64,000 bases of DNA from a virus (lineage: Duplodnaviria > Caudoviricetes), in IMG/VR virus record IMGVR_UViG_3300033073_001332, positions 64,001 to 128,000 of that record; one strand, 5' to 3'. Shown here piece by piece: positions 2,788 to 37,056 of the stretch (position 1 is the stretch's first letter; every line of letters starts with the position of its first letter). Position numbers and translations under genes: made by a program. The notes under the pieces were generated by a model. That model was not told the origin of the DNA and ran no database searches. It saw only the letters and a list, made by a program, of their open reading frames with translations.

Positions 2788-2816
2788 ATAAAAAATAAAC
2801 TTGTAAGTTATGATTA

Positions 2817-3260
2817 ATGAAAAAAGGAAAAACATCAAAATTAAACATTTTTGATGATGCGAAATGTTTCTACGGAACGGTAGATTCAAAAAATATGAAA
2901 TCAATTTATGTAGTATTACAGACTTGGATAGAACCCATAACCATAGACGAAAATTGGAACAGATTAGTTGGTGAAATAAAAAGACAAATCCAACACACAC
3001 TTTTAGAAGTTATAGATACCCACACATTTGAAAGAAAACAAATAGTAGATTTAGATTTAAGGACAAGTGGAATTCAAAAGAACAAAAAAAGTTTTATGAA
3101 TTTAGAAATTACACTATTTGTTCATAATAAAACATTAGATTTCAAATCCCACATTTTAAGAGATAAAATTAAAAAAATGTTATCATCAATATATGTCGAT
3201 GATTTGAAAAACAATAAACATTTTACACTAAGTAAGACAAAAGTTGTAGAATTCAAATAA
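2817..3260 (+). CDS. Hypothetical protein
   Basis: 147-aa ORF downstream of a sigma70-like promoter. Confidence 0.7.
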   Translation: MKKGKTSKLNIFDDAKCFYGTVDSKNMKSIYVVLQTWIEPITIDENWNRLVGEIKRQIQHTLLEVIDTHTFERKQIVDLDLRTSGIQKNKKSFMNLEITLFVHNKTLDFKSHILRDKIKKMLSSIYVDDLKNNKHFTLSKTKVVEFK

Positions 3261-19186: not shown

Positions 19187-20164
19187 TTATTTATTTTTAT
19201 AGAAATCCAACCAATATTCAATCATTTCATCTAACATAGATTCAAACGTATATTTAGGTTCCCATCCTAAGTTATATTTTAGTTTTGAAGAATCACCTTT
19301 TAAGTCATGTAACTCTTCAGGTCTAAAATGTTTTTCATCTATTATAATATAATCATAATAGTTTAAACCTAATTTTGAAAATGTGTATTCACATAAATCT
19401 TTTACTGAGTGTGATATTCCAGTTGCACATACATAATCATCTGGTGTGTCTGTTTGTAACATTAACCACATGGCTTCAACATAATCTTTTGCGTGTCCCC
19501 AATCTCTTGTTGCATCTAAATTACCGATATGTAATTTATCTTGTAATCCCAAACTAATTCTAACCGCCGCCTTTACAACCTTATTGGTTACGAAATTTGT
19601 TCCTCGTCTTGGTGATTCATGGTTAAATAAAATACCATTCCATATTTTCATTCCATATGAGTTACGATAGTTTCTACAAATGTTATATGAAAAAACTTTA
19701 GCACATCCATATGGTGATACAGGATTCATTGGGGTGGATTCTCTTTGAAATCCATCCTCATCAATTGTATTACCAAACATCTCAGAAGATGATGCTTGAT
19801 ATATTTTAATGTCTTTATTTAGTAACTTAACCGCTTCTAATAAATTTAAAGTTCCTAAACCTGTAACATTTGCTGTGTAAATAGGTTGGTCAAATGAAAT
19901 TCTAACATGGGATTGTGCTGCTAAATTATAAATTTCAATAGGTTCAATTTCTTGTATTACTCGAGTTAATGATGATAAATCTGTTAAATCTGCGTAATGC
20001 AATTTTAATTTATCAAAAACAGAATCAATTCTACTTGTTTGATTTTCAGACACTGAGTTTCTTTTCAAAGTTCCATGAACTTCATAACCTTTTTCTAAAA
20101 GGAATTCTGCGAGATATGAACCATCTTGTCCATTAATCCCTGTTATAAGTGCTACTTTCTTCAT
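19187..20164 (-). CDS. gmd: GDP-mannose 4,6-dehydratase
   Basis: ALITGINGQDGSYLAEFLL, LAAQSHV, YQASSSEMFG, SPYGCAK, LFNHESPRRG, RDWGHA. Confidence 0.97.
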   Translation of the reverse strand: MKKVALITGINGQDGSYLAEFLLEKGYEVHGTLKRNSVSENQTSRIDSVFDKLKLHYADLTDLSSLTRVIQEIEPIEIYNLAAQSHVRISFDQPIYTANVTGLGTLNLLEAVKLLNKDIKIYQASSSEMFGNTIDEDGFQRESTPMNPVSPYGCAKVFSYNICRNYRNSYGMKIWNGILFNHESPRRGTNFVTNKVVKAAVRISLGLQDKLHIGNLDATRDWGHAKDYVEAMWLMLQTDTPDDYVCATGISHSVKDLCEYTFSKLGLNYYDYIIIDEKHFRPEELHDLKGDSSKLKYNLGWEPKYTFESMLDEMIEYWLDFYKNK

Positions 20165-21309
20165 TCGTTAATTATTGATACAATAGTTTGAATTTCATCT
20201 AAAGTCAATCCTTGATGATTAGGGATATAAAATCCATATTGGTTAATTAATTCGCAGTTTTTTAATGATACTTCCCCGTATTTTTTTACCCACATCGGTT
20301 TTTTAGACATATCACCAGCAATGAGAGGTCTGACTTCTATATTTTTAGACATCAATTTATTAACAATCATGTCCCTGTTTTCGTCAACTATCGGATATGC
20401 GAAATTTGAAACAAAATCACCTTCTTTTTGGTTAACATTAATTTTGTTATTTTTGATTAGGTTTTTATAATGATTAAAGTTTAGGTTTCTTTTTTCACCA
20501 TAACCATCAAGTTTATCTATTGCCATTAGTCCAATAAAGGCTTGTAAATCAGTTGCTCTCAAATTAAAACCAGGTAAATAGAAGGTATATAATGAATCAA
20601 ACTCACTTACTTTATTTTCATTTCTAAGTTTATTTTGAATGTGTTTTGGTAAGTCTCTATCCCACCCATGACTTCTCATCATCAAAAGTGAGTAATAGAA
20701 ATCTTTATCATTAGTATTAATGAATCCACCTTCAATTGTACTTAAATGATGACCAAAATACATTGAGAAAAATGATGCAAACCCAAAAGAGCCGAGATAT
20801 TGTTCTTGGTATTTTGACCCCATACTTTCACAAACATCTTCTAATAATATTACATTATACTTTTCACAAAGTTCAACAACTTTTTCCATGTTGGGAACTA
20901 ACCCTAATGGTGAAACAAGTATCATACATGATGGGTCATGATTTTTAAATAACTCCTCTAAATGATTTAAATCACATGACAAATCTTCTAAATTACAATC
21001 ACAGAGAATTGGTTCCATACCTAACAACATAGGTGAGCTAACATCAGTTGCCCAACTTAATCCTGGTACAACAATTTTATTATTTCTTAATTTGTCAGTG
21101 TGAAGTAAAGCCGCAAGTGCAAGTAAAATTGCTGAAGACCCTGAGTTTACGTAAACAGAATATTTTGTTCCAATCTTTTCAGCCCATTTTGATTCTAACT
21201 CCCAAGTTAAATTCCCTTTTGTTAATCTAGGAATTTCATCTTGTCCTAACCATTCGATTAATTTATTAATGTCGTTTTTATCTATTGTGTCTTTAACTAA
21301 CTTTATCAT
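20161..21309 (-). CDS. colD: PLP-dependent GDP-4-keto-6-deoxymannose 3-dehydratase (ColD-type DegT family)
   Basis: VNSGSSA, EDVCESMG, FSMYFGHHLSTIEGG (His in place of the DegT catalytic Lys), RSHGWDR. Confidence 0.8.
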   Translation of the reverse strand: MIKLVKDTIDKNDINKLIEWLGQDEIPRLTKGNLTWELESKWAEKIGTKYSVYVNSGSSAILLALAALLHTDKLRNNKIVVPGLSWATDVSSPMLLGMEPILCDCNLEDLSCDLNHLEELFKNHDPSCMILVSPLGLVPNMEKVVELCEKYNVILLEDVCESMGSKYQEQYLGSFGFASFFSMYFGHHLSTIEGGFINTNDKDFYYSLLMMRSHGWDRDLPKHIQNKLRNENKVSEFDSLYTFYLPGFNLRATDLQAFIGLMAIDKLDGYGEKRNLNFNHYKNLIKNNKINVNQKEGDFVSNFAYPIVDENRDMIVNKLMSKNIEVRPLIAGDMSKKPMWVKKYGEVSLKNCELINQYGFYIPNHQGLTLDEIQTIVSIINE

Positions 21310-22210
21310 AATACGTTTCGTAAACTATTTTTATACCATCACTAAGTGGTGTGAATTTAAAATCCGGAAATAAACCCTTGAACTTATCTATTGATACATC
21401 TTTTCTGAACTGACCATTAGGTTTTTCTTTGTCCCATAAAATCTTTATGTTTTTATTATCTGTAACATCAAGTGCGATTTCTGCCATTTGTCTAATTGAA
21501 AGATTTTCTTCCGTAGCTACATTAAAACTATCTGTAATATTATTTTCAATAGTTTGTTTTATTATTTCTGCAAAATCACCAGCATACATAAATTGTCTTA
21601 ATGGTGTGCCATCACCATATAATGTAATATTATCTAATCCATTTTTCTTTGATTCATGTATCTTTTTAATCAAAGATGTTAAAAAATGACTTTTATTCTC
21701 ATCGTCTTTATCTTCAATACCATAAAGATTACATGGTATTAAATACTGGTAGTCTAATTTATATTGTTGGTTATAAGCATCAATCTGTGCTCCCATTGAA
21801 CGTTTTGAATACCCATATGAAAAATTTGTTATGGTTGGGGGTCCTTCGTGTAACATCGACTCATCCATTGGGTAATGTTTAGCAACATCAGGGTAAATAC
21901 AAGTACTTAAAATACCTATAAATTTTTTAACTTTAAAAACCCTCGAATATTCCACCATTAAAGTGTTCATCAATACATTTTGAGTAAAGTATTCTGCGGG
22001 GTGGTTGAGGTTATCGATTATACCTCCAACTCTTGCTGCTAGATGTACAACAACTTCTGGTTTATGTTTTAAAAACATTCTTTTTACACCATCTTCACTA
22101 GTTAAATCATAATCTTTTGATGATATATAGATAGCGTCAGGTAATATCTTTTTAAGATACTTACCAACTAATCCTGACCCACCCGTCACTAATATTTTTT
22201 TATTTTCCAT
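21293..22210 (-). CDS. fcl: GDP-L-fucose/colitose synthase (epimerase-reductase, Fcl/ColC)
   Basis: GGSGLVG, HLAARVGGI, STCIYP, YGYSKR, PCNLYG, GDGTPLRQF. Confidence 0.9.
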   Translation of the reverse strand: MENKKILVTGGSGLVGKYLKKILPDAIYISSKDYDLTSEDGVKRMFLKHKPEVVVHLAARVGGIIDNLNHPAEYFTQNVLMNTLMVEYSRVFKVKKFIGILSTCIYPDVAKHYPMDESMLHEGPPTITNFSYGYSKRSMGAQIDAYNQQYKLDYQYLIPCNLYGIEDKDDENKSHFLTSLIKKIHESKKNGLDNITLYGDGTPLRQFMYAGDFAEIIKQTIENNITDSFNVATEENLSIRQMAEIALDVTDNKNIKILWDKEKPNGQFRKDVSIDKFKGLFPDFKFTPLSDGIKIVYETYYDKVS

Positions 22211-22212
22211 TG

Positions 22213-23076
22213 TTACAAAAATGAATTTGCGGAGTTTATTATTTCTTCAAATGTATTATCATGAATAAAATTTGCCTTTAAATGAACTTTTGTGGTTTCT
22301 TTAGGTAACCAATCAACAATCGACATTTTATTTCGACAGCTAGTCATATTTGTTAAAACCATATTTTTTTTCATACCACCAACCATTGGCCAAATACCAC
22401 TATCGGTTGATATGAAAACTTTACATTTGGATAATAAGTATAAATCATCATTTATTGTTTTATTTTCCACTTTGGTAAAATCAACTATATTTTCATGTAT
22501 AGGCATGGGAGTTTGATTTTTATCACCAATCCTATAAACTTTGTATCCTAAATTTGCATAATGTAACGCAATATTAAAAAACGTATTAATATCCACAAAC
22601 CTTGATGGTTCAGAATCGTTACCATCAATTCTTTTCCAAAATGTGTTTTTTTCTCTGAATTGTAGAACTATCGTATCACTTGGTATGTTGTGAACGTTAG
22701 AATAATTTTCTTCGTTAAATATTAATCTTGTTTCAGGTGATAATTTAAGGTCTTCCCACATACCGTTATATGTCAAACCGTGATGTGCATATGCGGATGG
22801 CATGTATATATCTTTAAATTCTTCCGTACCGTATAAATTATTATTTAATATATCACCGATATTTTGAATATTTAATCCATCAAAAATTTTTGGGAAGAAT
22901 TTAATATTATTTTCATTAATGTTTGGTATACATAACGCAAAATATTTTTGGAATTCGTGTTCCACATAAATTGTAGGATTATCGTCAGGATTTACATCCA
23001 AGTATTGAGCTAAACCATATACATGTTCGGCGGAATTTCCTAATGCGTCGTCATGTCTCCATATTCCATATTTCAT
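22213..23076 (-). CDS. Putative glycosyltransferase (GT9/TIGR04372-like C-terminal domain)
   Basis: LGN N-motif, LQFRE, YRIGD, FISTDSG. Confidence 0.55.
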   Translation of the reverse strand: MKYGIWRHDDALGNSAEHVYGLAQYLDVNPDDNPTIYVEHEFQKYFALCIPNINENNIKFFPKIFDGLNIQNIGDILNNNLYGTEEFKDIYMPSAYAHHGLTYNGMWEDLKLSPETRLIFNEENYSNVHNIPSDTIVLQFREKNTFWKRIDGNDSEPSRFVDINTFFNIALHYANLGYKVYRIGDKNQTPMPIHENIVDFTKVENKTINDDLYLLSKCKVFISTDSGIWPMVGGMKKNMVLTNMTSCRNKMSIVDWLPKETTKVHLKANFIHDNTFEEIINSANSFL

Positions 23077-23714
23077 TGAGGCCAGTTTTTATAATGTTTA
23101 TAATTCATAGGGTCTGAATTTATTTTTTTGTTAACTAACAAAGAAATATACTTATCAATTCCGTGAACCAACATAGGTCTCTTTTCTTTAAACAGAGACT
23201 CTGATTTTTTTCTCAATGTCAATAACTCGTTATCATTATCAGTAGATGCCATAGCGTCTTCTAAATACCAATAACGAATATGTACTATACATAATTTGTC
23301 AATTAATTCAGAAAAAGTATCAGTAATGATATTATCATAATTTGGGAATTTATTCTTATTAAGTAGTAAGTTAACTTTATTTTCGATGTATGTATCTATG
23401 ATATTACCGATTGATTCCTCGTTAAAAAAATCCTTATCGTTCATTGCTTTGTCATCAACTACAATATCGTAATTAAGTTTTTTACCAACCCTTACTTCAT
23501 TATATTTAACTCCCCATTTTTCAAGTTGGGAAATGGTTAATTCTTGCCAATCTATTCCGGTGGTTGCACCTCTAGCGGTATCAATTATAATGTGATGACC
23601 CTCACTAAAAAGTTTATTTACCTTTTCAATTCTTTTCTCGTATGGTTTTGCTATTTCATAATTACCCTCTGTGTTTGTACATAAGGTACCATCTAAATCA
23701 AAGCAATATATCAT
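23073..23714 (-). CDS. HAD phosphatase (capsule-biosynthesis type) fused to C-terminal helical domain
   Basis: FDLDGTL, TARG, K, VDDKA; second domain FSELIDKLCIVHIRYWYLED (DUF4254-like, tentative). Confidence 0.75.
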   Translation of the reverse strand: MIYCFDLDGTLCTNTEGNYEIAKPYEKRIEKVNKLFSEGHHIIIDTARGATTGIDWQELTISQLEKWGVKYNEVRVGKKLNYDIVVDDKAMNDKDFFNEESIGNIIDTYIENKVNLLLNKNKFPNYDNIITDTFSELIDKLCIVHIRYWYLEDAMASTDNDNELLTLRKKSESLFKEKRPMLVHGIDKYISLLVNKKINSDPMNYKHYKNWPQ

Positions 23715-24534
23715 TTGTTTTTCTTAGTTTTTTAGCTATTGGTTTTTCTGTTTCATAAACCACCTTTATACCATCACCTAAGACGGTTTCCATTTTACGA
23801 ATACCTGAAACTAACTCAGAAACATGTTCGATAGATGCTGCTTGGTCTGAACCATACATTGTTCTATCTTTAGTAATATGAAATTCAACACACTCAGAAC
23901 CAAGAGCAACCGCACCATAACAAGGGATAAGCCCACTTGCGTGGTTTGAAAATCCAATTTTGTATTGTGGGTATTTTTGTTTTAATGTGGTGATATAATT
24001 TAAATTAATTTCTTCGTCTTTTGTTGGGTATGTACTGGTACATGCTAAAACATAATCAACATTATTTAATATATTTAAAGCTCCATCAATTTCCTCTTCT
24101 GTTGACATACCAGTTGAGACAATAATACGTTTACCCGTTTCGTTAAGTCTTTGTAAAAAAGATTTGTCAGTCAAAAGTGCTGACGCAACTTTATGATATT
24201 TTACATTTAAATTAGATTCAATTAAATCCACACTATTTAAATCCCAACAAGATACAATAAAGTCCAAGCCTAAATCATTTGAGAATGACTCTAGTTCTTT
24301 ATATTGTTCAATACTGAACTCAAGACCCATTTTTTGTTCACGGTTTGTTGTGCCCCACGGCGATTCTCTGTATGCGTCTAATTCTTCTTTAGTATAAACT
24401 AAATCAATATCACGTTTTTGAAATTTAACGGCATCACAACCACTTGATTTGGCGGTAACAATTAATTCTTTCGCCAAATTAAGGTCACCATTGTGGTTAA
24501 TACCGATTTCTGCAATTACATAAGTTTTTTTCAT
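23698..24534 (-). CDS. neuB: NeuB-family PEP-dependent ulosonic acid synthase (short, no C-terminal AFL domain)
   Basis: IAEIGINHNGD, DAVKFQKR, KVAS, STGMS, CTSTYP, GFSNH, EFHIT, GSDQAAS. Confidence 0.92.
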   Translation of the reverse strand: MKKTYVIAEIGINHNGDLNLAKELIVTAKSSGCDAVKFQKRDIDLVYTKEELDAYRESPWGTTNREQKMGLEFSIEQYKELESFSNDLGLDFIVSCWDLNSVDLIESNLNVKYHKVASALLTDKSFLQRLNETGKRIIVSTGMSTEEEIDGALNILNNVDYVLACTSTYPTKDEEINLNYITTLKQKYPQYKIGFSNHASGLIPCYGAVALGSECVEFHITKDRTMYGSDQAASIEHVSELVSGIRKMETVLGDGIKVVYETEKPIAKKLRKTNDILL

Positions 24535-24538
24535 TTTT

Positions 24539-25108
24539 TTATTTTTTAAACATTTTATTTTCTACGATTTCTAATATTGTGTGTCCAAGTAGAGTATGAC
24601 ATTCTTGTATTCTTGCCGTGTTATTTGATGGTATTATTAAACTAACATCTGAAATATCTTTCATTTCACCACCATCATTTCCTATAAATGAAATTACATA
24701 TGAGCCTTTAGATTTTGCAACATCAATCGCTTTAATAACATTTTTAGATTTACCTGATGTTGAAAAACAAATTAAAATATCACCTTCTTTAACTGATGAT
24801 TTTATTTCACGATAAAAGATGTCTGAGTAAGAATAGTCATTTCCTACTGCAGTCAAATAAGAAACGTTGGAGGCCAATAAAACAACCTCTAACGGTTCCC
24901 TATCAAAGTAAAAACGACCACTTAATTCTGCTGATAAATGTTGAGCATCTGCAAAACTACCACCATTACCACAAAAGAATACTTTATTACCTCTATTATA
25001 ACATTCTATAATTTTTTCAGCAATTATATTTGAGTTATTTATAATAACCTCATCATTCAAAAGTTTAGTTTTTAATTCAATAGACTCTTGAATGTTTTTT
25101 ATAATCAT
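24539..25108 (-). CDS. gmhA: Phosphoheptose isomerase GmhA-like SIS protein (start probably 25108 or 25117)
   Basis: CGNGGSFADAQHLSAELSGRF, TAVGNDY, STSGKSKNV, RIQECH. Confidence 0.88.
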   Translation of the reverse strand: MIIKNIQESIELKTKLLNDEVIINNSNIIAEKIIECYNRGNKVFFCGNGGSFADAQHLSAELSGRFYFDREPLEVVLLASNVSYLTAVGNDYSYSDIFYREIKSSVKEGDILICFSTSGKSKNVIKAIDVAKSKGSYVISFIGNDGGEMKDISDVSLIIPSNNTARIQECHTLLGHTILEIVENKMFKK

Positions 25109-25110
25109 TT

Positions 25111-25929
25111 CTACCATACTGTTTTCCCTCCGTCGATTACCACATTTGAACCTGTCATATATGAACTTGCGTCTGAACACATAAAAACAATTGCTCCTTT
25201 ATATTCATCAATATGAGCCATTCTACCCATTGGTATAATATTAGATAACTTGGTAACAAAATCAACAGGATGGTCATTATAAACTCCCGTTGGACTTAAA
25301 CAATTTACTCTAATATTATTTTTAGCAAAATATGTAGAAAGATATTTTGTCATACCGATAACCGCCCATTTAGCTGCAGAATATGTAATTGGTTTTACAT
25401 TTTGTTCATCTTCGGATTTTGTTTCATCTCGATATATTCTTTGGTCGGGAGCAATTACACCTAAATCTGATGATATATTTAATACAACACCACCACCCGT
25501 TTGCAACATCTTATTACAGATTATTTGTGATGTAAGAAAAGTACCATTAATAATTGCATCAATACCCTCTTTAAAATAAGATTCAGTCATTACCTCAAAT
25601 CTAGTTTCAGGTGTTAAACTTTTATCATCTTTTGTTACTTTTGGGTCTTTAGCCGCGTTGTTTATTAAAATATCAATCCTATCATATTTTTCTGAGACCT
25701 GTAAGATTGTTTCTTTTTTTGTGACATCCATATATTCCCAAAAAACATTCTCTTCACCATAGATTGATGAAAGTTTTTGATGTTTTTCGGATAACGATTT
25801 TGTATCAACATCTGTAAGAATAACTTTAGCACCGTACTCTAAAAGTGCTTCGGCATGTTTAGGACCTAATAATCCACCCGCACCTGTCACTAAAGCTACC
25901 TTACCATCTAAATCAAATAAATTTCTCAT
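25111..25929 (-). CDS. SDR oxidoreductase, PtmA-like (ulosonate-cluster associated)
   Basis: TGAGGLLG, NNAA, YSAAK, IRVNCLSP, SYMTGSNVVIDGG. Confidence 0.85.
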   Translation of the reverse strand: MRNLFDLDGKVALVTGAGGLLGPKHAEALLEYGAKVILTDVDTKSLSEKHQKLSSIYGEENVFWEYMDVTKKETILQVSEKYDRIDILINNAAKDPKVTKDDKSLTPETRFEVMTESYFKEGIDAIINGTFLTSQIICNKMLQTGGGVVLNISSDLGVIAPDQRIYRDETKSEDEQNVKPITYSAAKWAVIGMTKYLSTYFAKNNIRVNCLSPTGVYNDHPVDFVTKLSNIIPMGRMAHIDEYKGAIVFMCSDASSYMTGSNVVIDGGKTVW

Positions 25930-26696
25930 AATAGTTCTTTGATTTTATTGTATGTGTTTTTTATGTAGTTTATCTCATCACCATCAACATCCCTTGCTAA
26001 TTGTAAGATGATGTTATCATGGTAGTTATTTTTTTTTAATGTATCAATTATTGTTTTGAAATCGGTTTGACCTAACCCAAAATGTTTTGTTTGTCCATCA
26101 TAAGTTCTATCTTTAAAGTGGACATTTTTAATTTTATAACCAAAAAAGTTTATTAATTCTTCATGGTTTATTTTTTCTTTATATGTTGATGTAAAATTAC
26201 CAGTGTCGTAGGTGATATAAAAATTATCTCTTTTACTAACCACATCCATAACAATTTCCTTATCACATTCAAACTCAAAACAAAAATTTATATTAGGGTA
26301 GTTTTCAGAAATAGGGACAAAGTTTTTTAAAAATTCATGTCTGATGTATTCATTTTCAACTGAACTATCTTCGAGTAATGGGATAACTATTTTATTTAAA
26401 CCTAACTCCATCATTCGATTCAAAACAGGTACTAAATTTTCATTCATAAACTCTAGTTTATAAAATGAATTACAAACCATAGTATCAACACAAACGGAAA
26501 GAATGTTTGATGGTAGGGATTGCTCAACAAAAAAGGGATTAGTTAAATTATCTTTTGGCGTAATTAACCATTCTATACCTGATAGGTTTATTTGATTAAG
26601 ATTTTGAAATTCATATTCCCAATCATTTGTTGGGAATTCTTGCATTTTTCCATTTACAGGTTTACTTAATCTACCTTGTAATATTCCAAAAATCAT
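25926..26696 (-). CDS. Sugar-phosphate isomerase/epimerase (xylose isomerase-like TIM barrel)
   Basis: GILQGRLS, IEW, FE, YDTGN, VHFKDR, G.GQTDF. Confidence 0.8.
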   Translation of the reverse strand: MIFGILQGRLSKPVNGKMQEFPTNDWEYEFQNLNQINLSGIEWLITPKDNLTNPFFVEQSLPSNILSVCVDTMVCNSFYKLEFMNENLVPVLNRMMELGLNKIVIPLLEDSSVENEYIRHEFLKNFVPISENYPNINFCFEFECDKEIVMDVVSKRDNFYITYDTGNFTSTYKEKINHEELINFFGYKIKNVHFKDRTYDGQTKHFGLGQTDFKTIIDTLKKNNYHDNIILQLARDVDGDEINYIKNTYNKIKELL

Positions 26697-27661
26697 TTCT
26701 TACCGAAATTATAAGGTGTTGGTGCGGTTGGGGAAAGTTGGAACTCGTTATTAAAATCTTTAATCTGTTTTTCAATATCTAATCCCACATTTTCACTCCA
26801 TTTGTTTAGTAATTTTCTTGTAATATCACCCATACCTGAAGTTATCTCAATATAGTTAATTGATGTCATGGGTAGTATACAGAATGGGGTGGCAGTCATA
26901 AAACATTCATCGGAGGTGTATGCGTCATAAGGGGTTAAATCAGATTCAATACATTCAATACCTAATTCATTACATAGGTCAAAAATATAATCTCGACTAA
27001 TACCACGTAATATATTGTGTCCTTTTGGTGTTAAAACTTTTCCGTCTTTAACAAAGAATATATTATCACCACTACCTTCAGCAATGAAACCATTTTCATC
27101 TAATAATACCGCCCAATTGTTTTCACCTTTATAAAAAGATGCTTCAATATTTGCCATTTGGTAATGTAGTCGACTTCTATTTTTAATTCTCGGGTCTAAA
27201 AGGTTGTTACTGATTGCTTTTTGTTGTGTGATAACCCCATTTACTCCACCATCAAATAATTTACCCATACCATTTACGGTCCACTTTAAAGGGAAGTCGG
27301 CAATAATAACGGTAGGTTGGGGGTTTTCAAAAAGGTGTGAGTATAAACCTAAAGGGCCTCGACTCACATTAATCATCAATCGATGCTCATCTGTAGGTAG
27401 AAAATTAGGTTCGTTTATTTCAACTACTTGATTACAAAATTCAATCATTTGTTCTTTTGAATATTGTATAGGTATTCTTAGTATTTTCAAACCATTAAAT
27501 AACCTATCGATATGTTCTTCTAATTTAAATTGTTTTTTATTAAATGACCTAGTCATTTCAAAAACCATATCTCCAAACATCAAAGCTGAATCGTAAATTG
27601 AAATTTTAGCATCCATTTCATCTACAAACTCACCATTATAAAAAACTTTTCTATTACTCAT
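26693..27661 (-). CDS. Class IV PLP aminotransferase (BCAT/D-amino-acid aminotransferase fold)
   Basis: DSALMFGDMVFE, LEEHIDRL, RIKNRSR (catalytic Lys), AEGSGDN, LRGISR. Confidence 0.88.
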   Translation of the reverse strand: MSNRKVFYNGEFVDEMDAKISIYDSALMFGDMVFEMTRSFNKKQFKLEEHIDRLFNGLKILRIPIQYSKEQMIEFCNQVVEINEPNFLPTDEHRLMINVSRGPLGLYSHLFENPQPTVIIADFPLKWTVNGMGKLFDGGVNGVITQQKAISNNLLDPRIKNRSRLHYQMANIEASFYKGENNWAVLLDENGFIAEGSGDNIFFVKDGKVLTPKGHNILRGISRDYIFDLCNELGIECIESDLTPYDAYTSDECFMTATPFCILPMTSINYIEITSGMGDITRKLLNKWSENVGLDIEKQIKDFNNEFQLSPTAPTPYNFGKK

Positions 27662-28329
27662 TTTAATTTATTTTTAAAAATCAGTTCGCAAAGTTCTAAA
27701 TCCTCTAAACTATCAATCTCGAACATTTTCCAACCGTCCATTAATGATAAACCAATTTTACCAAATAATCTATTATTATTTTCAATAAACCCTTCTTTTT
27801 TGAAGACATATATTGAACCATTTTCGACATATTGTATTTCAGAATCCTGTCTCCTTTTTCTATTTTTATAATCATAATTGACACTCTCAAGGGAATCATT
27901 ATTAGATTTCCAAATTAACATATCCTCTAATATGCTGGCAGAAAAAACACTATCTAAATTATTGTTTATTAGTGACTCTATGCTGTTGTCTATATCTTTA
28001 GTTGTTCTTAATGGTGAAGTTGCTTGTAAAAAAACAATATAATCGTAATCTTTGTTTAATGTTTTAATCGTATGGATTAAAGCACTTTCACTTGACGATG
28101 TGTCGGTTGATAATTCTTCAGGTCTTTTTAATGTGGTTGCCCCATATAATTTAGATACTTCTAATATTTCATCAGAATCACTACTAACCACAACATCGGT
28201 AATGTATTTTGAATTTAATGCTTGATTAATTGAGTGACTAATTAATGGTTTACCCGCAAACTCAATTATATTTTTTTTAGGTATTCCTTTACTACCTCCT
28301 CTTGCGGGGATTATACATAGAATTTTCAT
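27658..28329 (-). CDS. neuA: CMP-ulosonic acid synthetase (acylneuraminate cytidylyltransferase)
   Basis: IPARGGSKGIPKKN, LQATSPLR, RRQD, ENGSIY, EIDSLED. Confidence 0.93.
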   Translation of the reverse strand: MKILCIIPARGGSKGIPKKNIIEFAGKPLISHSINQALNSKYITDVVVSSDSDEILEVSKLYGATTLKRPEELSTDTSSSESALIHTIKTLNKDYDYIVFLQATSPLRTTKDIDNSIESLINNNLDSVFSASILEDMLIWKSNNDSLESVNYDYKNRKRRQDSEIQYVENGSIYVFKKEGFIENNNRLFGKIGLSLMDGWKMFEIDSLEDLELCELIFKNKLK

Positions 28330-29054
28330 AAACTTTCAGTTTTTAACACTTTCGTTAAATGTGAAGATTGATTTAGGTTGATTATTTCTACTCCTATTTT
28401 TTTAGCACTTTCATTAATTATATTAAAGTCATTTAAAATATTATTTAAAAATGGGTCAAATTCCGTAACTAAAGTAGGTTGTCTATAAGAACCAAAATAA
28501 CCTTTTTTATAATCTAAATCTACCCCTGTAATATATATTTTTTTACAACCCAATAAAATAGACAAAGCAACCATATGTACAGCAACAGTATCCCCTGCAC
28601 TATATTTTTCGTTATGACCTGTAAATTTTTGTAATTCTTCTTGTATTGTTAATCTATCACTTATGAAGTTATCACACGTGTTTGGACAATTATTACATTT
28701 TTTGTTATTGAAATGTCTTTGGTCATATCCGATATAATTAAAATTTTTCATCCATTCCTCAATCCACCATCTTGGGGTTACATCGACAGAGTCTGAATGG
28801 ACAATCGTAGTGTTAGGAAATTTTTTGAACCTATTAAACATGAAATGTGCTGTCTGATGAGAGTTGGCAAAAACCCAATAGTCGGGTTGTAAATCAGTTA
28901 ATAAGTCAATATCATTACAAGAGACTAAAACTATGTCGTCTCTTTTTGTTTTTATGTAATCGATATTTTCAGAAAACGAAGGACCAAGACCACACACAAA
29001 TGCAATCTTATCTGAATGTTTATTTTTTACTTGGTCAAAATTATATTGTATCAT
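28326..29054 (-). CDS. Maf/DUF115 (MptE-like fold) putative CMP-ulosonate transferase
   Basis: AFVCGLGPSF, SCN, PDYWV, GDTVAVHM..LSILLGCKKIYITGVDL. Confidence 0.7.
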   Translation of the reverse strand: MIQYNFDQVKNKHSDKIAFVCGLGPSFSENIDYIKTKRDDIVLVSCNDIDLLTDLQPDYWVFANSHQTAHFMFNRFKKFPNTTIVHSDSVDVTPRWWIEEWMKNFNYIGYDQRHFNNKKCNNCPNTCDNFISDRLTIQEELQKFTGHNEKYSAGDTVAVHMVALSILLGCKKIYITGVDLDYKKGYFGSYRQPTLVTEFDPFLNNILNDFNIINESAKKIGVEIINLNQSSHLTKVLKTESL

Positions 29055-30024
29055 TATTCAATAATTTTTTTATATCGTATATCCAGTTATTTAGATTTGT
29101 TATTTCATAGTCTTCTACAATATTATTTTCATATAATTTTTCATATACTTTTAATAAATCGTCTTCTATTGATTTATTTTCTAACTTAATTTTTTCTAGT
29201 ATATCTATAAGTTTTGGAACATTTTTATACATTGATATTTCATCAATAAAGTCCACATAAAAATCATGGTAGTTTCTAACTTGATACGTATTTGGTCCAT
29301 GAAACCCAACATGGTAGTTATAATCCCACATAATTCTTTGTGTTACATATCCTTTTAATATATCAGAAAATCTAAAATCAACTGATATTGGGACATACAA
29401 TAAAATAAAAAATAGATTATTCCACAAGGTACTTTGTGTGTTAAAAGGGGCGTAACAATTTTTTTCTAACGATATATCTTCAGATTGATTAAATTTAATA
29501 TGTTTATTAATTGTTAATCTATATATTGCGTCAAAATCGGAGTCATCATTAATAACCCCTTGCCATACACCTATGTTTGTATTTTTTTTATCTTTGGTGT
29601 ATTTGGGTTCATTGTTAATATGTCGTATGTCCATCCCTCTCGGCCAACACTTTTCATCGGTAAAAAAAGTATAAGGATTAACTATTTTTGGTGATGTTAT
29701 TATATTTTCACAATTAAAATTCTTAATACCCCAATTGTCGTAAGGTATTGTATCATCGTCGGTGTCATAAATTAATGATGCACCTTTATTAATTGCGTAT
29801 AAATACCCTATGTTTTTTCTGGAGTAATGGTTATAGGGTGTCGTGTCTGTAATTTTATAACCTAAACTTTTTTGTTGTTCAACATCTAAAAAAGTAACAT
29901 TTGTATGGTTGTATTTTTTACTCTTTAAATCACCAACAACAATGACGTGCCAATCTTTTTTTTCTGAAAATTTAATTACAGATTCTGTTAAATCATTAAT
30001 TGATGTTATTACTACATAATTCAT
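29041..30024 (-). CDS. STELLO/DUF288-like glycosyltransferase
   Basis: VVITSIN, VVGDLKS, PYNHYSRKNIGYLYAI..GA..IYDTDDD, WPRG, PFNTQSTLW, FRFSDI. Confidence 0.8.
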   Translation of the reverse strand: MNYVVITSINDLTESVIKFSEKKDWHVIVVGDLKSKKYNHTNVTFLDVEQQKSLGYKITDTTPYNHYSRKNIGYLYAINKGASLIYDTDDDTIPYDNWGIKNFNCENIITSPKIVNPYTFFTDEKCWPRGMDIRHINNEPKYTKDKKNTNIGVWQGVINDDSDFDAIYRLTINKHIKFNQSEDISLEKNCYAPFNTQSTLWNNLFFILLYVPISVDFRFSDILKGYVTQRIMWDYNYHVGFHGPNTYQVRNYHDFYVDFIDEISMYKNVPKLIDILEKIKLENKSIEDDLLKVYEKLYENNIVEDYEITNLNNWIYDIKKLLNNDTI

Positions 30025-30859
30025 TGTATATCTCGTCCGTATTAGGTATGTGATTTATGAAATTAAATTTTACTCGTGAAAAATTAATACAATTATTATA
30101 AAAAGAAGGGTCTCCACCATGTTGTTTCATAAGACCCGTGTTATCGATAATTGTCATGTTTATGTTTTCATGACCAAATATCAAACATGGGTAAACCCCA
30201 CCGGTCATTGTGCTCATAACTTTTTTACAATTTTCATTCTTAACAATAGTACACCAATCCCTATAATTTTTAATAAAAGTTATATTATGGTTGTCACACC
30301 ATTTTTCAGTTTCTTTACCAAAAACAAATGTTTTAACATTGTTCGTTTTTAATTTTTCAATAAGGTTATCCCAAAACTCATCGCTCATATTTTTTTCAGA
30401 CCAAGCTGCTCTTTTTCTTATTACAAGACATATAAAAGGAGAACTTAAATCATATTCCTCTAAATCACTCCAATCTACGTTGGTAATAATGTGTTTGTCT
30501 CTCTCCCAATTTTGATAAAATGTTGAGTATGGGATTAATCTTTGGTCCAAAGGGCCTGAAGACATTTGTAAAAAAATACCTCTTTCTAATAAATCTATAG
30601 TTTCGTTATTTGAGAGTTCCATCGATTGATATTCTTGGTAACTTATCACGTTGTCAAATATTTTAGTATAAAGACACTTTCGTTCTTCTATGGTTACAAC
30701 ACAATCTGTCTTATCTATTTTACCCTCTTGTAAAAGCATAATTAAATATAGTCTAGTAATAACTAATTCTGTTGCAATCTCTGTGATACTCAACGGGTCT
30801 TTACCATCACTCACGGAATCTCCTTTGTATTTATCTTTTGCAACTATTATGTATTTCAT
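29996..30859 (-). CDS. Hypothetical protein, possible GT-B glycosyltransferase
   Basis: ICLVIRKR..KN pattern, STMTGG; context in glycan cluster. Confidence 0.45.
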   Translation of the reverse strand: MKYIIVAKDKYKGDSVSDGKDPLSITEIATELVITRLYLIMLLQEGKIDKTDCVVTIEERKCLYTKIFDNVISYQEYQSMELSNNETIDLLERGIFLQMSSGPLDQRLIPYSTFYQNWERDKHIITNVDWSDLEEYDLSSPFICLVIRKRAAWSEKNMSDEFWDNLIEKLKTNNVKTFVFGKETEKWCDNHNITFIKNYRDWCTIVKNENCKKVMSTMTGGVYPCLIFGHENINMTIIDNTGLMKQHGGDPSFYNNCINFSRVKFNFINHIPNTDEIYNELCSNNIN

Positions 30860-32436
30860 TTTTTTCTAAAAATTTTATTTTTAATGACTAAAAAGTCTAA
30901 CTCAGTGTTATCCAAAACATAAAATGCGTCCTCATATCTTGTTAGGATTGGTAACCCTTTAATGTTAAATGAAGTATTCAATATGATTGGGATATGGTTT
31001 AATTCCTCAAGTTTATCTAAAATATCATTAAATAACTTATGAGTTTTATTAGTTGTTGTTTGTAATCTTGTTGTTTTGTCCTCATGCACTATTGATTTTA
31101 CTTTATCGATATATTCGTCTTTAATCATCGGCGCGTAACTCATGTAATTAGATACTTTAGGGTTTTCAAAATACTTTTCCATATCTTGAACTCGACAAAC
31201 AGGTGCGAACGGTCTAAACCATTCCCTAAATTTTACTTTAGCGTTTAATATGTCTTTCATATTAGGAAACGATGGGTCACAAATAATACTTCTATTACCT
31301 AACGCTCTTGGGCCAACTTCAGAATAACCATCAATCAACCCCATTATTTTACCATCTTTTAAATAACCTACAATTTTTTCAATAGTTAAATCCTCGTTAG
31401 GGTAATCATTTAAAAATTTATCATATAACTCTTCATCTAATATTTCAATACCGCTATAACAAATTTCTTGTTTACCTAAATTTGGAAACTTAGTTAAAAA
31501 CATACCATATGATTCTCCACAATCATTTGGGTTTGACGGAACATGTAAATCTAAATTAATGGTTTTTAGATATTCTTGTAATTTTTGATTGTAGAGTACG
31601 TTTAGAGCACAACCACCAACCAATACAACATTAGTTTTATGTTCCTCAACAAAAGGTAATATTAATTCATCCATTTTTTTTTCAAAAACATATTGTGATG
31701 TTGCTGCGGCGTCATACGAGTCTTGACCACTAAGTATATCTTTATCACACGGGATACCAATTGATGAACATAATGACTCTAAACTTTTGTCGTTATAATA
31801 TTGTTCAAAATATTGAACCCATTCCTGTCTAACTTTACCGTACGCACATAAGCCCATAACTTTACCCGCATTGGTTAAAGAGTGTTTTGTTTTGTGTACA
31901 GAACTAATTTCTGAAATTAGCCAACCTATTGCGGAATAAGGATTACCAAAGTCATAATTATGACAATTTAATTGCATAATATCATCACCGTTACCTAAAT
32001 ACGCTCTTGTGGTATAAACTTCACTAAAATCATAACCACCTCCGTCTACTGAAAAAATTAAGGATTGATTAAAATTCGATGTATAGTAACCTGAAGCTGC
32101 GTGAGAAAAATGGTGCTTCATTAATTCAAACTCGGCGTTTGGGAAAAAACTTTTTATTAGATTTTTATCTTGGTTATTTAACTCTAAATATAAAACTAAT
32201 TTTATATCGGTGTTTTGAAGATTGTTTTTTACATGTGTTAAAAAGTCTATTCGTTCGTTTTGATTGGACCCCATTAAATCCCATTTATCAAATCGGGACG
32301 AAAACATCGCATATCTTTTTTTGACAAATCTTTCGTATTCATAAACTCGTAAGGTATTGTTTTTATCGATAAAAGTTAATGATGCATCGTGTGAACCATA
32401 AATTGATATCACTTCATTTGGAATGTAGTCTTGCAT
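30856..32436 (-). CDS. O-carbamoyltransferase (NodU/CmcH/TobZ family)
   Basis: HDAS, ERF, HHFSHAAS, DGGG, GKVMGL, GGCALN, GPRALGNRS, KFREWFRPFAP, LNTSFN. Confidence 0.93.
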   Translation of the reverse strand: MQDYIPNEVISIYGSHDASLTFIDKNNTLRVYEYERFVKKRYAMFSSRFDKWDLMGSNQNERIDFLTHVKNNLQNTDIKLVLYLELNNQDKNLIKSFFPNAEFELMKHHFSHAASGYYTSNFNQSLIFSVDGGGYDFSEVYTTRAYLGNGDDIMQLNCHNYDFGNPYSAIGWLISEISSVHKTKHSLTNAGKVMGLCAYGKVRQEWVQYFEQYYNDKSLESLCSSIGIPCDKDILSGQDSYDAAATSQYVFEKKMDELILPFVEEHKTNVVLVGGCALNVLYNQKLQEYLKTINLDLHVPSNPNDCGESYGMFLTKFPNLGKQEICYSGIEILDEELYDKFLNDYPNEDLTIEKIVGYLKDGKIMGLIDGYSEVGPRALGNRSIICDPSFPNMKDILNAKVKFREWFRPFAPVCRVQDMEKYFENPKVSNYMSYAPMIKDEYIDKVKSIVHEDKTTRLQTTTNKTHKLFNDILDKLEELNHIPIILNTSFNIKGLPILTRYEDAFYVLDNTELDFLVIKNKIFRKK

Positions 32437-32492
32437 TTAATATTATTTTTAATAAAAATAGATTAATAGAATTAAAAATGAAGATTAAGGTG

Positions 32493-33263
32493 TTATAATA
32501 TAACCCAATTTTCACAATACACGTCCTTTGTATCCATACCTTGTTTAGCAGGACCAAACCAATTTTTAGGTGATACTACAATTTTGTTTTCATTCGTATT
32601 TAACCAAGAACCCCACCAAGAAAAAGATGAGTTTGCAATTATATTGTTTTCACACAAAGACATTAAATATAAATCTTCATAATCTTCATTATTTTCACAA
32701 TAAACAACTTTATCTAAAAAGTTAAAATTTTCTTTACACCACCCAATGTCGTCAGAAAATATAAAAAATGTTTTATCGTCACCAATTATACCAATGGATT
32801 TTTTATAGTAATCGATATCTTGGACAGGGTGGTGTTCTGACAAATTAAGATAGTCACCTCTTCTGATATGTATTGAACAACTATTATTTAATTTATCGCT
32901 ATATTTTTTTTTAAGTTCATTAATCACTTCATCACATAAAAACAATTCTAAAATTTTTTCTCTGTTGTGATTAAAATATTTTTCAGATTGAAAATACCCA
33001 TGAATGTATGTTGGTAACATAAAATCAGGTATTGGAGAAAAGTGAAAATGAGGTTCGTAATAAACTTGTGTAGTGTTAAAGTTTGAGTCAAATGTGATAT
33101 TCTTTAAAATATTATTTGTGTAATTCGTTATTGGTTTGTGAACCACTTGAATGTTATTTGGGTTAATTACGAATTTTTCACCCAAATCAATAGATTTAGA
33201 ATACCCAGCAGCAATTTGAAATAAGTAATTACCAAGACCCCCCATCAAAAAAGAAGAGACCAT
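32493..33263 (-). CDS. GT11 alpha-1,2-fucosyl/colitosyltransferase
   Basis: GGLGNYLFQ, GYFQSEKYF, HIRRGDY, FSDD, ANSSFSWW. Confidence 0.92.
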   Translation of the reverse strand: MVSSFLMGGLGNYLFQIAAGYSKSIDLGEKFVINPNNIQVVHKPITNYTNNILKNITFDSNFNTTQVYYEPHFHFSPIPDFMLPTYIHGYFQSEKYFNHNREKILELFLCDEVINELKKKYSDKLNNSCSIHIRRGDYLNLSEHHPVQDIDYYKKSIGIIGDDKTFFIFSDDIGWCKENFNFLDKVVYCENNEDYEDLYLMSLCENNIIANSSFSWWGSWLNTNENKIVVSPKNWFGPAKQGMDTKDVYCENWVIL

Positions 33264-33265
33264 AC

Positions 33266-34078
33266 CTATAACGTTTTTATAAAATTATAGACATGTTCGT
33301 CTGGTAACAAAAAGTTCTTACACTTTTCAAAATTCTCTTTAATTGACTCTAATTTGGACTCATATAATGATTCATTACAACTATCTAAAATAGATTCTAA
33401 CTCCTCCATATTGTTAAAAATTAACATACCGTCTACATTAAAGAAATCACCGATAGAAGGACAACCCCAATAGATTGGAATTGTACCTGTGGCAAAACAA
33501 TCGATAAGTTTTTCAGTAAACCAATAATCCCTTTTACAATTTTCAATAACAACGGAAAATTTATAATCTTTTAACCCTTCTATTTTAAATTCAACAGGAG
33601 TATAACCTCTACCGAATACATCCATTTTACTTCCAAACTTTTGAATTACTTCATGTCTTAATTTGTGTCCATCAGTAAATGTTTTATTGGATGATATTAT
33701 TGAAATGTTTTTGTTTTTGTTGTAGATTTTTTGTTCTTCTTTAGGAATCCAACAACAACCAAATGGTATAAATTGTGTTGGGTAAAAAATATCTAATAAG
33801 GTCTTTTCGTGTGTTAAAATATAATCAAACTTCATTAAATTGTTTTTCACATATTCATAGTGTTGAGGTGCAACACACATAGGTTCAATTAACCAAGCAA
33901 TTTTATTTTTACTTGGTGGTATATTTGATGATAAAAAATTGTCGGTGATGACGACATTGTCTTCTTTATTTAATGGACCTCTATCCCAACTAAAATTTTC
34001 AGATACTTGAAAATCTGAACAATATCCTAATATCGAGTGTGAAAATGTATTATCTATTATTTTTATACGTTCTTTCAT
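33266..34078 (-). CDS. GT10-like fucosyltransferase
   Basis: YKFSVVIEN, FTEKLIDCF..GTIPIYWG. Confidence 0.8.
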   Translation of the reverse strand: MKERIKIIDNTFSHSILGYCSDFQVSENFSWDRGPLNKEDNVVITDNFLSSNIPPSKNKIAWLIEPMCVAPQHYEYVKNNLMKFDYILTHEKTLLDIFYPTQFIPFGCCWIPKEEQKIYNKNKNISIISSNKTFTDGHKLRHEVIQKFGSKMDVFGRGYTPVEFKIEGLKDYKFSVVIENCKRDYWFTEKLIDCFATGTIPIYWGCPSIGDFFNVDGMLIFNNMEELESILDSCNESLYESKLESIKENFEKCKNFLLPDEHVYNFIKTL

Positions 34079-34800
34079 CTAACCAATTTTTCGTATGGTT
34101 TATATCCTCTTATGATTTGATTCATTTTTTGAACCTCAGGAAAATTAACTTTGTGTTCGTTTAACGGGTTACTTTCATTATATATGTAGTTTACGTCGTA
34201 CATAAATTTATAGTGTTCTGGTCCACACATTTCAACCATAGGAAACATAAATGCTAAATCACATGCAATTTTCCAATAGTTATTGTTTGAGTCTTTTAAA
34301 TCCTCTTGTTTTATACTTCTCCATAAAAATGATTTCCAAGTTCTTAAGTGTGATAATGTAAATGGTTTTTGTCTTATATCCTCAAACGTGGTATGTGGTT
34401 GTGAAAAACCTGGTCTACCATCATGGTACTTAAAGCTTCCATTTGCTAACCAAACATCACCTGAATTATATGTGTCAACGACTCTTTGAAAAACTTTTGA
34501 ATCGGGTAACCAATCATCCCCATCAACTTCAATACAGATATCTTCATCAGAAATATCATAATCGCCACGAATAACTTGGTCATAATTTCCTGCTTGGTAC
34601 ATTTTTGTTTTATTTTCGATTAACACAAAACGATTATCGTTTTTGATAAATTCTTTAATTTTTTCTACCGTATTGTCTGTTGAAATGTCATCAGTTATAA
34701 AACATCTGAAATCTTTGTATGTCTGTGACATTATTGTCGATAATGAACGCTCAATAAATTTTTCACAATTGTAAGATGTGGTTAAAACAATTACTCCCAT
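34075..34800 (-). CDS. Glycosyltransferase family 2
   Basis: YNCEKFI, DDISTD, VDGDDW. Confidence 0.88.
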   Translation of the reverse strand: MGVIVLTTSYNCEKFIERSLSTIMSQTYKDFRCFITDDISTDNTVEKIKEFIKNDNRFVLIENKTKMYQAGNYDQVIRGDYDISDEDICIEVDGDDWLPDSKVFQRVVDTYNSGDVWLANGSFKYHDGRPGFSQPHTTFEDIRQKPFTLSHLRTWKSFLWRSIKQEDLKDSNNNYWKIACDLAFMFPMVEMCGPEHYKFMYDVNYIYNESNPLNEHKVNFPEVQKMNQIIRGYKPYEKLVR

Positions 34801-34803
34801 TTT

Positions 34804-37055: not shown

Positions 37056-37056
37056 A

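Follow-up and report, generated by a model that had tools for sequence, protein, structure and literature searches.

Cell surfaces are capped by sialic-acid-like sugars, on which recognition by immune systems and phages depends. To our knowledge just a handful of pathways to such sugars are known, namely those to 3-deoxy-D-manno-oct-2-ulosonic acid (Kdo), ketodeoxynonulosonic acid (Kdn), N-acetylneuraminic acid (Neu5Ac), and pseudaminic (Pse) and legionaminic (Leg) acids with their isomers. In the Kdo pathway (KdsD, KdsA, KdsC, KdsB) a SIS-fold isomerase, a condensation with phosphoenolpyruvate (PEP), a HAD phosphatase and a CTP_transf_3 enzyme follow each other. In the Kdn-9-phosphate and Neu5Ac-9-phosphate routes (BT1714/BT1713 of Bacteroides thetaiotaomicron and NANS/NANP of animals) a NeuB-family synthase acts on a sugar phosphate, and a phosphatase and a CMP-synthetase complete the route. 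Described here is a set of eight genes at positions 23073-29054 of a 64,000 nt window (the whole stretch of DNA that was analysed), which represents bases 64001-128000 of the 219,553-base IMG/VR virus record IMGVR_UViG_3300033073_001332, with an estimated completeness of 75%. Among the genes of the window are those for a portal, a prohead protease and a gp23 capsid protein of the T4 type, for the tail sheath and for a family B DNA polymerase (PolB), and its source is a large uncultured T4-like phage, not a cell; the capsid protein is nearest, at about 42%, to its counterparts in Flavobacterium phage immuto and in Microcystis phage Mel-JY01.

Judged by its sequence, the eight-gene module is a phage copy of a widespread, uncharacterised cassette of bacteria and archaea. 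The probable product of the region is a CMP-activated amino-3-deoxy-ulosonic acid, which would arise by a phosphorylated route and be passed on to a sialyltransferase-like enzyme. The genes, with the products assigned to them (SDR, short-chain dehydrogenase/reductase), are:

23073-23714, minus strand: two-module HAD protein of 213 aa, with a small HAD phosphatase in residues 1-100 and a domain of unknown function in residues 100-213
23698-24534, minus strand: SAF-less NeuB-family PEP-aldose condensing synthase, 278 aa (PF03102, E 6.5e-61, 206 bits)
24539-25117, minus strand: GmhA-type SIS sugar-phosphate isomerase, 192 aa (gmhA TIGR00441, E 9.7e-53, 178.4 bits)
25111-25929, minus strand: classical SDR oxidoreductase (PF13561, E 1e-35)
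25926-26696, minus strand: metal-dependent TIM-barrel epimerase, ketose-3-epimerase/UlaE/YcjR-like (PF01261, 31.3 bits, barely above cut-off)
26693-27661, minus strand: fold-type-IV (class IV) aminotransferase of a conserved family other than the branched-chain aminotransferases (PF01063, E 2e-48)
27658-28329, minus strand: CMP-ulosonate synthetase (CTP_transf_3, PF02348, E 5e-29; best NCBIfam match PseF)
28326-29054, minus strand: CstII/Cst-I/Maf-like transferase with an MptE-like domain, 242 aa (PF01973, E 1e-15, 58 bits)

The original prediction, which was made from the letters of the window alone, had placed eight contiguous genes in this interval, and all of them are present there on the minus strand. 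Neighbouring genes overlap by 4-17 nt or lie 4 nt apart. In the proposed scheme a ketose phosphate would be converted to an aldose phosphate by the GmhA-type isomerase, the aldose phosphate would be condensed with PEP by the SAF-less NeuB, and the terminal phosphate would be removed by the small HAD. One hydroxyl would then be oxidised by the SDR, the neighbouring carbon epimerised by the TIM-barrel enzyme, and the ketone turned into an amine by the class IV aminotransferase. After addition of CMP by the PseF-like enzyme, the CstII/Maf-like enzyme would move the sugar onto a glycan or protein that the 25 kb phage glycan locus around the module produces. A non-canonical CMP-ulosonic acid pathway with a phosphorylated intermediate had been predicted, and it is upheld by the combination of synthase, phosphatase and CMP-synthetase.

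The module is best read as a Kdo-like or Kdn-9-phosphate-like phosphorylated route for which other enzyme families would be used and to which oxidation, epimerisation and amination would be added. The logic of the Kdo pathway is retained step by step. However, the isomerase is of the GmhA type, without CBS domains, and not KdsD; the synthase belongs to the NeuB family and not to KdsA; the HAD is not of the KdsC type; and three tailoring enzymes (SDR, TIM barrel and aminotransferase) are extra. Compared with the Kdn-9-phosphate and Neu5Ac-9-phosphate routes, the synthase has no SAF/AFP domain, the HAD is of another subfamily, an isomerase and the oxidation, epimerisation and amination set are added, and the substrate may be a heptose phosphate. 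Oxidation of a hydroxyl of the finished ulosonic acid with subsequent transamination is also found in the formation of Kdo8N in Shewanella by the dehydrogenase KdnB and the aminotransferase KdnA. The phage module instead has an SDR and a fold-type-IV aminotransferase, families that presumably differ from those of KdnB and KdnA, and in addition a TIM-barrel epimerase. The YcjS/YcjR system of E. coli likewise couples a dehydrogenase that forms a keto sugar to a xylose-isomerase-like TIM barrel that acts as epimerase on the adjacent carbon. YcjR (6wn6) matches the phage TIM protein, but sequence identity is about 14%, the substrate here would be an ulosonate, and we take the Ycj dehydrogenase to be of another type than the SDR of the module. 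With the GDP- and ADP-D-glycero-D-manno-heptose pathways (GmhA, HddA/HldE, GmhB, HddC) the module has the GmhA active site in common, and its HAD family provides the GmhB step in other phages. Unlike those nucleoside diphosphate (NDP)-heptose pathways, it has no kinase and no nucleotidyltransferase, and a NeuB gene lies between the isomerase and HAD genes. The canonical Neu5Ac, Pse and Leg routes differ by a NeuC/LegG/PseG-type gene and by a SAF-bearing NeuB/PseI equivalog, both of which the module lacks.

Strong hidden Markov model (HMM) support was obtained for six of the eight genes, and the two weak cases, the TIM barrel and the HAD, were checked further by structure and motif. The HAD match is weak (E 0.004), but the DLDGT nucleophile motif is intact and the protein matches 9iqw and 1xpj, small HADs labelled "capsule biosynthesis phosphatase". 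It fits the TIGR01689/9iqw-type small HADs and not the KdsC/Kdn-9-phosphate phosphatase subfamily, and is proposed to be the ulosonate-phosphate phosphatase. The earlier assignment as a HAD phosphatase is thus correct for the core in residues 1-100, and the C-terminal domain had been overlooked. The NeuB protein consists of the NeuB domain only and scores below the equivalog cut-offs (230 vs 400 for TIGR03569 and 157 vs 340 for TIGR03586); its nearest structure, 6ncs, is SAF-less too. The SDR is proposed to turn one ulosonate hydroxyl into a ketone. It had been called PtmA-like, a label that does not hold beyond distant resemblance (99.8 bits vs a cut-off of 350). Campylobacter PtmF was considered as a GmhA-like partner of PtmA and was dropped, as it is listed as a 326-aa oxidoreductase (PMC4481668). 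The TIM protein was modelled with a pLDDT of 94, and the top Foldseek hits 3cqj, 2zvr, 5b7y and 6wn6 (TM 0.66-0.77) include UlaE, ketose 3-epimerases and the 3-keto-glucoside 4-epimerase YcjR. The cytidylyltransferase matches PF02348 and remains under the cut-off of PseF TIGR03584 (149 vs 206).

The MptE-like transferase is proposed to transfer the CMP-sugar. Its model (pLDDT 86) has as top Foldseek hits the sialyltransferases CstII and Cst-I and the Maf protein 5mu5. The designation "Maf-like" stands as far as the MptE-like domain and the fold are concerned. The protein is, however, a transferase of 242 aa and of CstII size that covers 23% of 5mu5 (TMt 0.23), and not a full-length Maf, which has about 600 aa with flanking domains and a flagellin partner.

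For the SIS gene the GmhA type that had been assigned is maintained and the start codon is revised: the most likely start is the ATG at 25117 (192 aa), which overlaps the SDR stop codon, rather than the GTG at 25180. The protein shows 38% identity to E. coli GmhA over its full length. In E. coli numbering H61, E65, Q172, H180, S55, R69, D94 and the phosphate loop S119-S124 are kept, whereas D169 is deleted in the phage protein and in the cassette SIS proteins alike. The catalytic and metal roles of H61, E65, Q172 and H180 and the role of the phosphate loop are those we assume for GmhA. Most of these positions are kept in 27-29 of 29 cassette SIS proteins, with R69 kept in 24 and S119 in 20 (the rest have Thr). 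The score remains under the curated TIGR00441 cut-off of 209.45. This counts for little, because the cut-off is strict and is passed by only one of the 24 best GmhA-like genes of the cassette-bearing genomes searched.

Relatives of the cassette were sought in one genome per species and were found in 331 species, from Omnitrophota, Elusimicrobia and Flavobacteriaceae to SAR11, Prochlorococcus, Leptospira perolatii and Nitrosopumilus. All open reading frames (ORFs) within 8 kb of the aminotransferase were clustered for the best 80 cellular loci. Present in these are the aminotransferase (79), cytidylyltransferase (73, in each case beside the aminotransferase), SDR (56), SAF-less NeuB (53), TIM barrel (50), SIS (29), methyltransferases (27), a KdsC-like HAD (19), a SPASM radical-SAM protein (17), a NeuB-SAF-TIM fusion (15) and a CBS-GHMP kinase (14). 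The same gene order is found in about 14 related viral contigs and in the 80 cellular loci examined; thus the gene set of the module is far from chance. A search of bacterial genomes for this neighbourhood had been suggested together with the original prediction, which missed both the phage origin and the wide spread of the cassette. A full-text literature search found nothing on this gene set: no article combines NeuB with a class IV aminotransferase, or nonulosonic acids with a branched-chain aminotransferase and a cytidylyltransferase, and none deals with a phage sialic acid synthase or with deculosonic acid.

The cellular loci fall into two types by synthase. Of the 19 loci with the KdsC-like HAD, 18 have the SAF-less NeuB and none has the NeuB-SAF-TIM fusion, and the SAF-less NeuB almost never occurs alongside a kinase. 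In 13 of 15 cases the fusion occurs with genes whose best families are an HddA-like kinase and an HddC-like nucleotidyltransferase. This division parallels that between sugar-phosphate routes (animal NANS, Bacteroides Kdn-9-phosphate) and nucleotide-sugar routes (bacterial NeuB), and by that analogy the phage module would belong to the sugar-phosphate class. As an example of the fusion type, the cassette of Leptospira perolatii (L073:3860-14836) has an HddC-like gene, a CBS-HddA-like gene, the NeuB-SAF-TIM fusion, SIS, TIM, cytidylyltransferase, class IV aminotransferase, two SDRs, a methyltransferase and a Gfo/Idh/MocA oxidoreductase.

Every TIM-bearing cellular locus has an SDR (50/50). Where the TIM/SDR pair is missing, the gene next after the aminotransferase mostly encodes a SPASM radical-SAM protein, both in cells and in viruses, and 14 of 17 SPASM loci lack the SDR. 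Thus the aminotransferase mostly has either of two candidate oxidising enzymes at its side, as a scheme of oxidation followed by transamination predicts. The same slot is occupied in related phages by the class IV enzyme, by a class III aminotransferase together with a glyoxalase-fold (VOC) protein, or by a DegT enzyme, which supports the reading that the class IV enzyme aminates the sugar. The constant SDR of the TIM loci and the variants of the aminotransferase slot agree with the earlier view that a dehydrogenase/aminotransferase amination step is part of the pathway. Close homologues of the class IV enzyme, at about 63-65% identity, number in the thousands, and the mean column identity over 15 diverse members is 76%. 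We know of no aminotransferase fold of this kind that acts on sugars.

A sister phage, the 121 kb contig G107, is collinear with the window for about 60 kb, with protein identities of 75-93%. New here is that this sister phage swaps the class IV aminotransferase and the cytidylyltransferase for a class III set, while TIM, SDR, SIS and NeuB are kept. Identities are 81% for the TIM protein, 92% for the SDR, 89% for the SIS and 88% for NeuB, and 38% for the cytidylyltransferase. A 444-aa protein replaces the class IV enzyme and is followed by a 137-aa protein. These are taken to be the counterparts of the class III aminotransferase (442 aa, PF00202) and the VOC protein of contig L106; class III aminotransferases of 442-444 aa (Pfam-checked for L106) with VOC proteins of 137-138 aa are located at L106:1279-3008 and L114:323-2049, and together with its cytidylyltransferase the L106 set spans 618-3008. 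G107 also lacks the carbamoyltransferase, a 287-aa unknown protein and a STELLO-like glycosyltransferase of the window, and the identity of neighbouring glycosyltransferases is down to 40-66%. The enzymes that would see the amino group, namely aminotransferase, cytidylyltransferase and transferases, thus seem to have been exchanged together, whereas those that would build the backbone are kept, which would place amination after condensation and before or at CMP activation. Fusion of cytidylyltransferase and aminotransferase into a single 545-aa protein (L004:3796-5433, L005:1220-2857; protein P0008) fits this order. The amination, activation and transfer end would therefore be a swappable unit that differs between near-identical phages, and this suggests selection for glycan diversity. 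Such phages, differing only in amination and activation genes, are a natural experiment on which enzymes set the final structure.

The class IV enzyme is found on 18 viral contigs, and the small HAD core on 71, 25 of which have NeuB nearby. In phages the small HAD lies directly after NeuB across three NeuB clades, some without SIS, and it is unrelated to the cellular KdsC-like HAD. A phylogeny of NeuB had also been proposed as a check. A quick maximum-likelihood tree places the window NeuB, with full support, in a clade of 17 sequences that are all viral; its sister group is the main cellular SAF-less clade, and the fusion type stands apart as a clade of its own. Among GenBank phage records only two uncultured relatives of the window NeuB were found, and none of the aminotransferase. 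The cassette would add a route in about 331 bacterial and archaeal species and in a whole clade of large aquatic phages, one that would use an aminotransferase fold new to sugars and possibly a longer carbon backbone. The phage gene set is compact and self-contained, and would be a rare case of a prokaryotic virus that encodes its own sialic-acid-type sugar with a transferase.

The number of carbons depends on the aldose phosphate. The likeliest candidate is D-glycero-D-manno-heptose 7-phosphate, which would lead to a ten-carbon acid, with a chance somewhat below even. A second new result is that the HAD is a member of a phage family that also takes the part of GmhB in NDP-heptose pathways: it is the phosphatase of complete NDP-heptose operons in about 30 other viral contigs (L126-L172), with the order GHMP kinase, SIS, HAD fused to a CTP_transf_like domain, and epimerase/dehydratase (extended SDR). 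These operons (e.g., L152:4554-7595) often lie beside GT11- or GT25-like transferases. HddA-like and HddC-like genes are present in the fusion-type sister cassettes. A GmhA-like gene is found in 24 of 24 cassette genomes (23 of 23 when G101 is left out) against three of 14 controls. The third new result is that all seven archaeal, monoderm or candidate phyla radiation (CPR) loci of the TIM/SDR type carry their own GmhA-like SIS gene within the locus, compared with 21 of 42 others (Fisher one-sided p 0.014, phylogeny ignored). Of the 21 loci without SIS, the 17 whose genome was checked are all from diderm lineages and have a GmhA-like gene at another genomic site. In two Nitrosopumilus genomes and one CPR genome the sole GmhA-like genes are those at the cassette, and six of the seven archaeal, monoderm or CPR cassette genomes have no GT9 heptosyltransferase. 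The step from heptose 7-phosphate to a ten-carbon acid, which the original prediction put forward as a possibility, is made more plausible by the GmhA residues (except D169), the GmhB-like HAD, the HddA/HddC-like genes and the GmhA-like genes of lineages without lipopolysaccharide. For Magnetospirillum gryphiswaldense and Methanococcus, mass-spectrometric studies have reported ten-carbon ulosonic acids, some of them CMP-linked, to which no genes are assigned (PMC8157484; bioRxiv 10.64898/2026.04.20.719630). We propose only tentatively that the full product is a CMP-activated amino-3-deoxy-dec-2-ulosonic acid from sedoheptulose 7-phosphate and PEP, with which the phage decorates its own virion fibres or the infected cell surface. 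If so, the cassette would explain orphan ten-carbon ulosonic acid signals in bacteria and archaea, and near-identical phages that exchange these aminotransferases and cytidylyltransferases would arrive at different stereo- or regio-isomers, as part of a surface-glycan arms race.

Several points weigh against the proposed pathway or its ten-carbon form. The SIS is accessory, as it is missing from the relative closest by aminotransferase (L003/L113) and from half of the TIM/SDR-type cellular loci. The ten-carbon species of Magnetospirillum bears two N-acetyl groups that are not obviously explained by the module. As regards an N-acyltransferase, the record has no hexapeptide-repeat proteins, GNAT families not having been searched for, and so the amine would stay free or be otherwise modified. 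The TIM fold agrees with ketose 3-epimerases and UlaE (TM 0.72-0.77) and E141, D164 and H193 are invariant, but the fourth metal/base position, assigned by strand order, is a nearly invariant Q232. With Gln rather than Glu at this site the enzyme may not be a classical two-base epimerase. Finally, a TibC/Aah-type autotransporter heptosyltransferase domain (TIGR04414, 298 bits, over the cut-off) is found inside a 1535-aa ORF at G000:C1:40887-41912, about 23 kb before the start of the window and 46 kb from the module, and again at G107:C1:109930-110934. An enzyme of this type would also consume GmhA-derived heptose, as ADP-heptose.

The TibC/Aah domain opens the possibility that the phage SIS and HAD act as GmhA and GmhB and feed the host heptose pathway, boosting ADP-heptose for the phage enzyme, while NeuB would use an aldose supplied by the host. 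The domain is present in this record and in G107, both of which have the SIS, and was not found in G111, which is 91% complete and SIS-less; the role of the HAD family in complete phage NDP-heptose operons agrees as well. Against this, SIS and HAD flank NeuB within the module (4-nt spacing and 17-nt overlap), far from the TibC-like gene; NeuB and HAD are adjacent in three NeuB clades, in part without SIS; and cellular cassettes tie SIS to NeuB in genomes that have no GT9 heptosyltransferase. Moreover, phages that make NDP-heptose encode the whole set, whereas Pfam searches of the entire 219.5 kb record (about 75% complete) gave no match to PF00483, PF00288, PF02350, PF01467, PF00294 or PF00132, hence no NTP_transferase, GHMP kinase, PfkB kinase, CTP_transf_like nucleotidyltransferase, NeuC-type epimerase or hexapeptide acyltransferase. 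A search of it for a heptose kinase, an adenylyltransferase and HldD was likewise negative. Epim305, tried as HldD, was rejected at 34.9 bits against a cut-off of 274.6. TibC was also found in none of 20 other viral records, which are mostly fragments and five of which have full heptose operons. For these reasons a supply of ADP-heptose is rated improbable as the role of SIS and HAD, although heptosylation and ulosonate synthesis could coexist. The original prediction held that heptose-activating genes elsewhere would count against it as an explanation of GmhA. The TibC/Aah gene goes part of the way, and no kinase or nucleotidyltransferase was found in the record. The absences first reported for the window, of NeuC and of heptose kinases and nucleotidyltransferases, thus extend to the whole record, where PF02350 (NeuC/LegG/PseG-type hydrolysing 2-epimerase/nucleotidase) is without a match.

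A different reading keeps the ulosonate and shortens it to nine carbons. Here the SIS or a host phosphomannose isomerase would give mannose 6-phosphate, from which Kdn-9-phosphate, Kdn and an amino-Kdn would follow, for example a neuraminic-acid-like 5-amino sugar made without N-acetylmannosamine. A trio of synthase, phosphatase and CMP-synthetase is the known logic of the Kdn-9-phosphate route, and the module has this trio. The cellular KdsC-like HAD also matches the Kdn-9-phosphate phosphatase family NF058599 (61.8 bits), the SIS is dispensable in many loci, and Kdn-type acids are common in environmental microbes (PMC8157484). However, nearly all cells make mannose 6-phosphate anyway and would not need a dedicated GmhA-type isomerase for it, and each archaeal, monoderm or CPR cassette of the TIM/SDR type nonetheless brings one. 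The GmhA phosphate loop and catalytic residues show no change and HddA-like and HddC-like partners occur in sister cassettes, and nine carbons are on balance rather unlikely. It is also conceivable, with a very low probability, that the class IV enzyme is not a sugar aminotransferase and makes a D- or branched-chain amino acid for N-acyl decoration, or is a lyase dependent on pyridoxal phosphate (PLP). Its nearest solved structures are archaeal branched-chain aminotransferases (BCATs; 178 bits), and its best NCBIfam matches are BCAT families. Yet it scores below all cut-offs for BCAT, D-amino acid aminotransferase (DAAT) and PabC (189 vs 246 for TIGR01122, IlvE). The catalytic K160, PLP-N1 E195 and phosphate R53 are retained, with the lysine inside an invariant IKNRSR motif, and the carboxylate-recognition positions of E. 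coli IlvE are altered: Y31F, G38M, Y95 to E92 (in a DEH insert), Y129N, Y164 to R164 and A258 to P259. The roles of these IlvE residues are those we assume for the E. coli BCAT structures. Fusion to the cytidylyltransferase in some genomes, replacement by DegT or class III enzymes at the same slot, and the failure to find a ligase or acyltransferase that would attach an amino acid (GNAT families not having been searched for) also speak against such a role. The earlier remark that the enzyme is of a type unusual for sugars is upheld. As to a faulty assembly in which host sugar genes would have been attached to a phage contig, the cassette is indeed typical of cellular genomes. A misjoin is nevertheless exceedingly improbable: G+C is uniform (28-31%) across the glycan array, PhoH, dUTPase and exonuclease genes are interleaved with the sugar genes, the same junctions recur in many independent viral contigs, G107 is collinear over about 60 kb, and NeuB is in a virus-only clade.

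The genes of the preferred phosphorylated ulosonate route are embedded in a single co-directional gene array on the minus strand, from about 38996 down to 12513. The array mixes phage genes (dUTPase, PolB-exonuclease-like, PhoH) with about ten glycosyltransferases (GTs), a carbamoyltransferase, a trio of GDP-mannose dehydratase, DegT aminotransferase and epimerase, and the eight-gene module. G+C is 28-34% throughout the window. The parts of the array on either side of the module are:

29041-38996, minus strand: STELLO-like GT, 287-aa protein of unknown kind, carbamoyltransferase, GT11, GT10, GT2, GT2+GT4, dUTPase, PolB-exo-like protein and phrog_7162 GT
19187-23076, minus strand: second donor pathway of GDP-mannose 4,6-dehydratase, DegT aminotransferase and NAD epimerase/reductase, with a TIGR04372 GT and then the phage PhoH; same order in related viral contigs

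The trio at 19187-22210 is a second donor route, to a GDP-perosamine-like or other 4-amino-6-deoxy sugar. It has no mannose-1-phosphate guanylyltransferase, and genes of the GT10/GT11 fucosyltransferase families are upstream. The carbamoyltransferase (30856-32436) is of the NodU/CmcH type; its absence from three sister contigs rules it out as a core member of the pathway. A scan of the region from 21.5 to 33.5 kb found fewer promoter-like sites than in shuffled sequences, and terminators at chance level. In a PHROGs search of ten unknown proteins, nine had no match. A large block of surface-polysaccharide genes is likewise found in the lytic T4-like aquatic phage P-SSM2, a cyanophage, whose description has no ulosonic acid pathway of the present type (PMC1079782).

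Downstream of the array, at 10750-12318, is a gene for a 522-aa protein with an N-terminal DPLMLGRVRV-type motif. We assume that this motif resembles the OB-fold of gp5/VgrG-like baseplate spikes; if the protein is spike-like, the genes just downstream of the glycan array would be structural. The gp23-like capsid protein (5938-7776) is unusually long at 612 aa, and its best Pfam stretch covers only residues 356-599. The tail sheath (55443-58655) is also unusually long, with 1070 aa. At 50680-51768 the phage encodes a protein with a Fe/Mn superoxide dismutase domain in residues 161-351, which follows an N-terminal extension of 160 aa.

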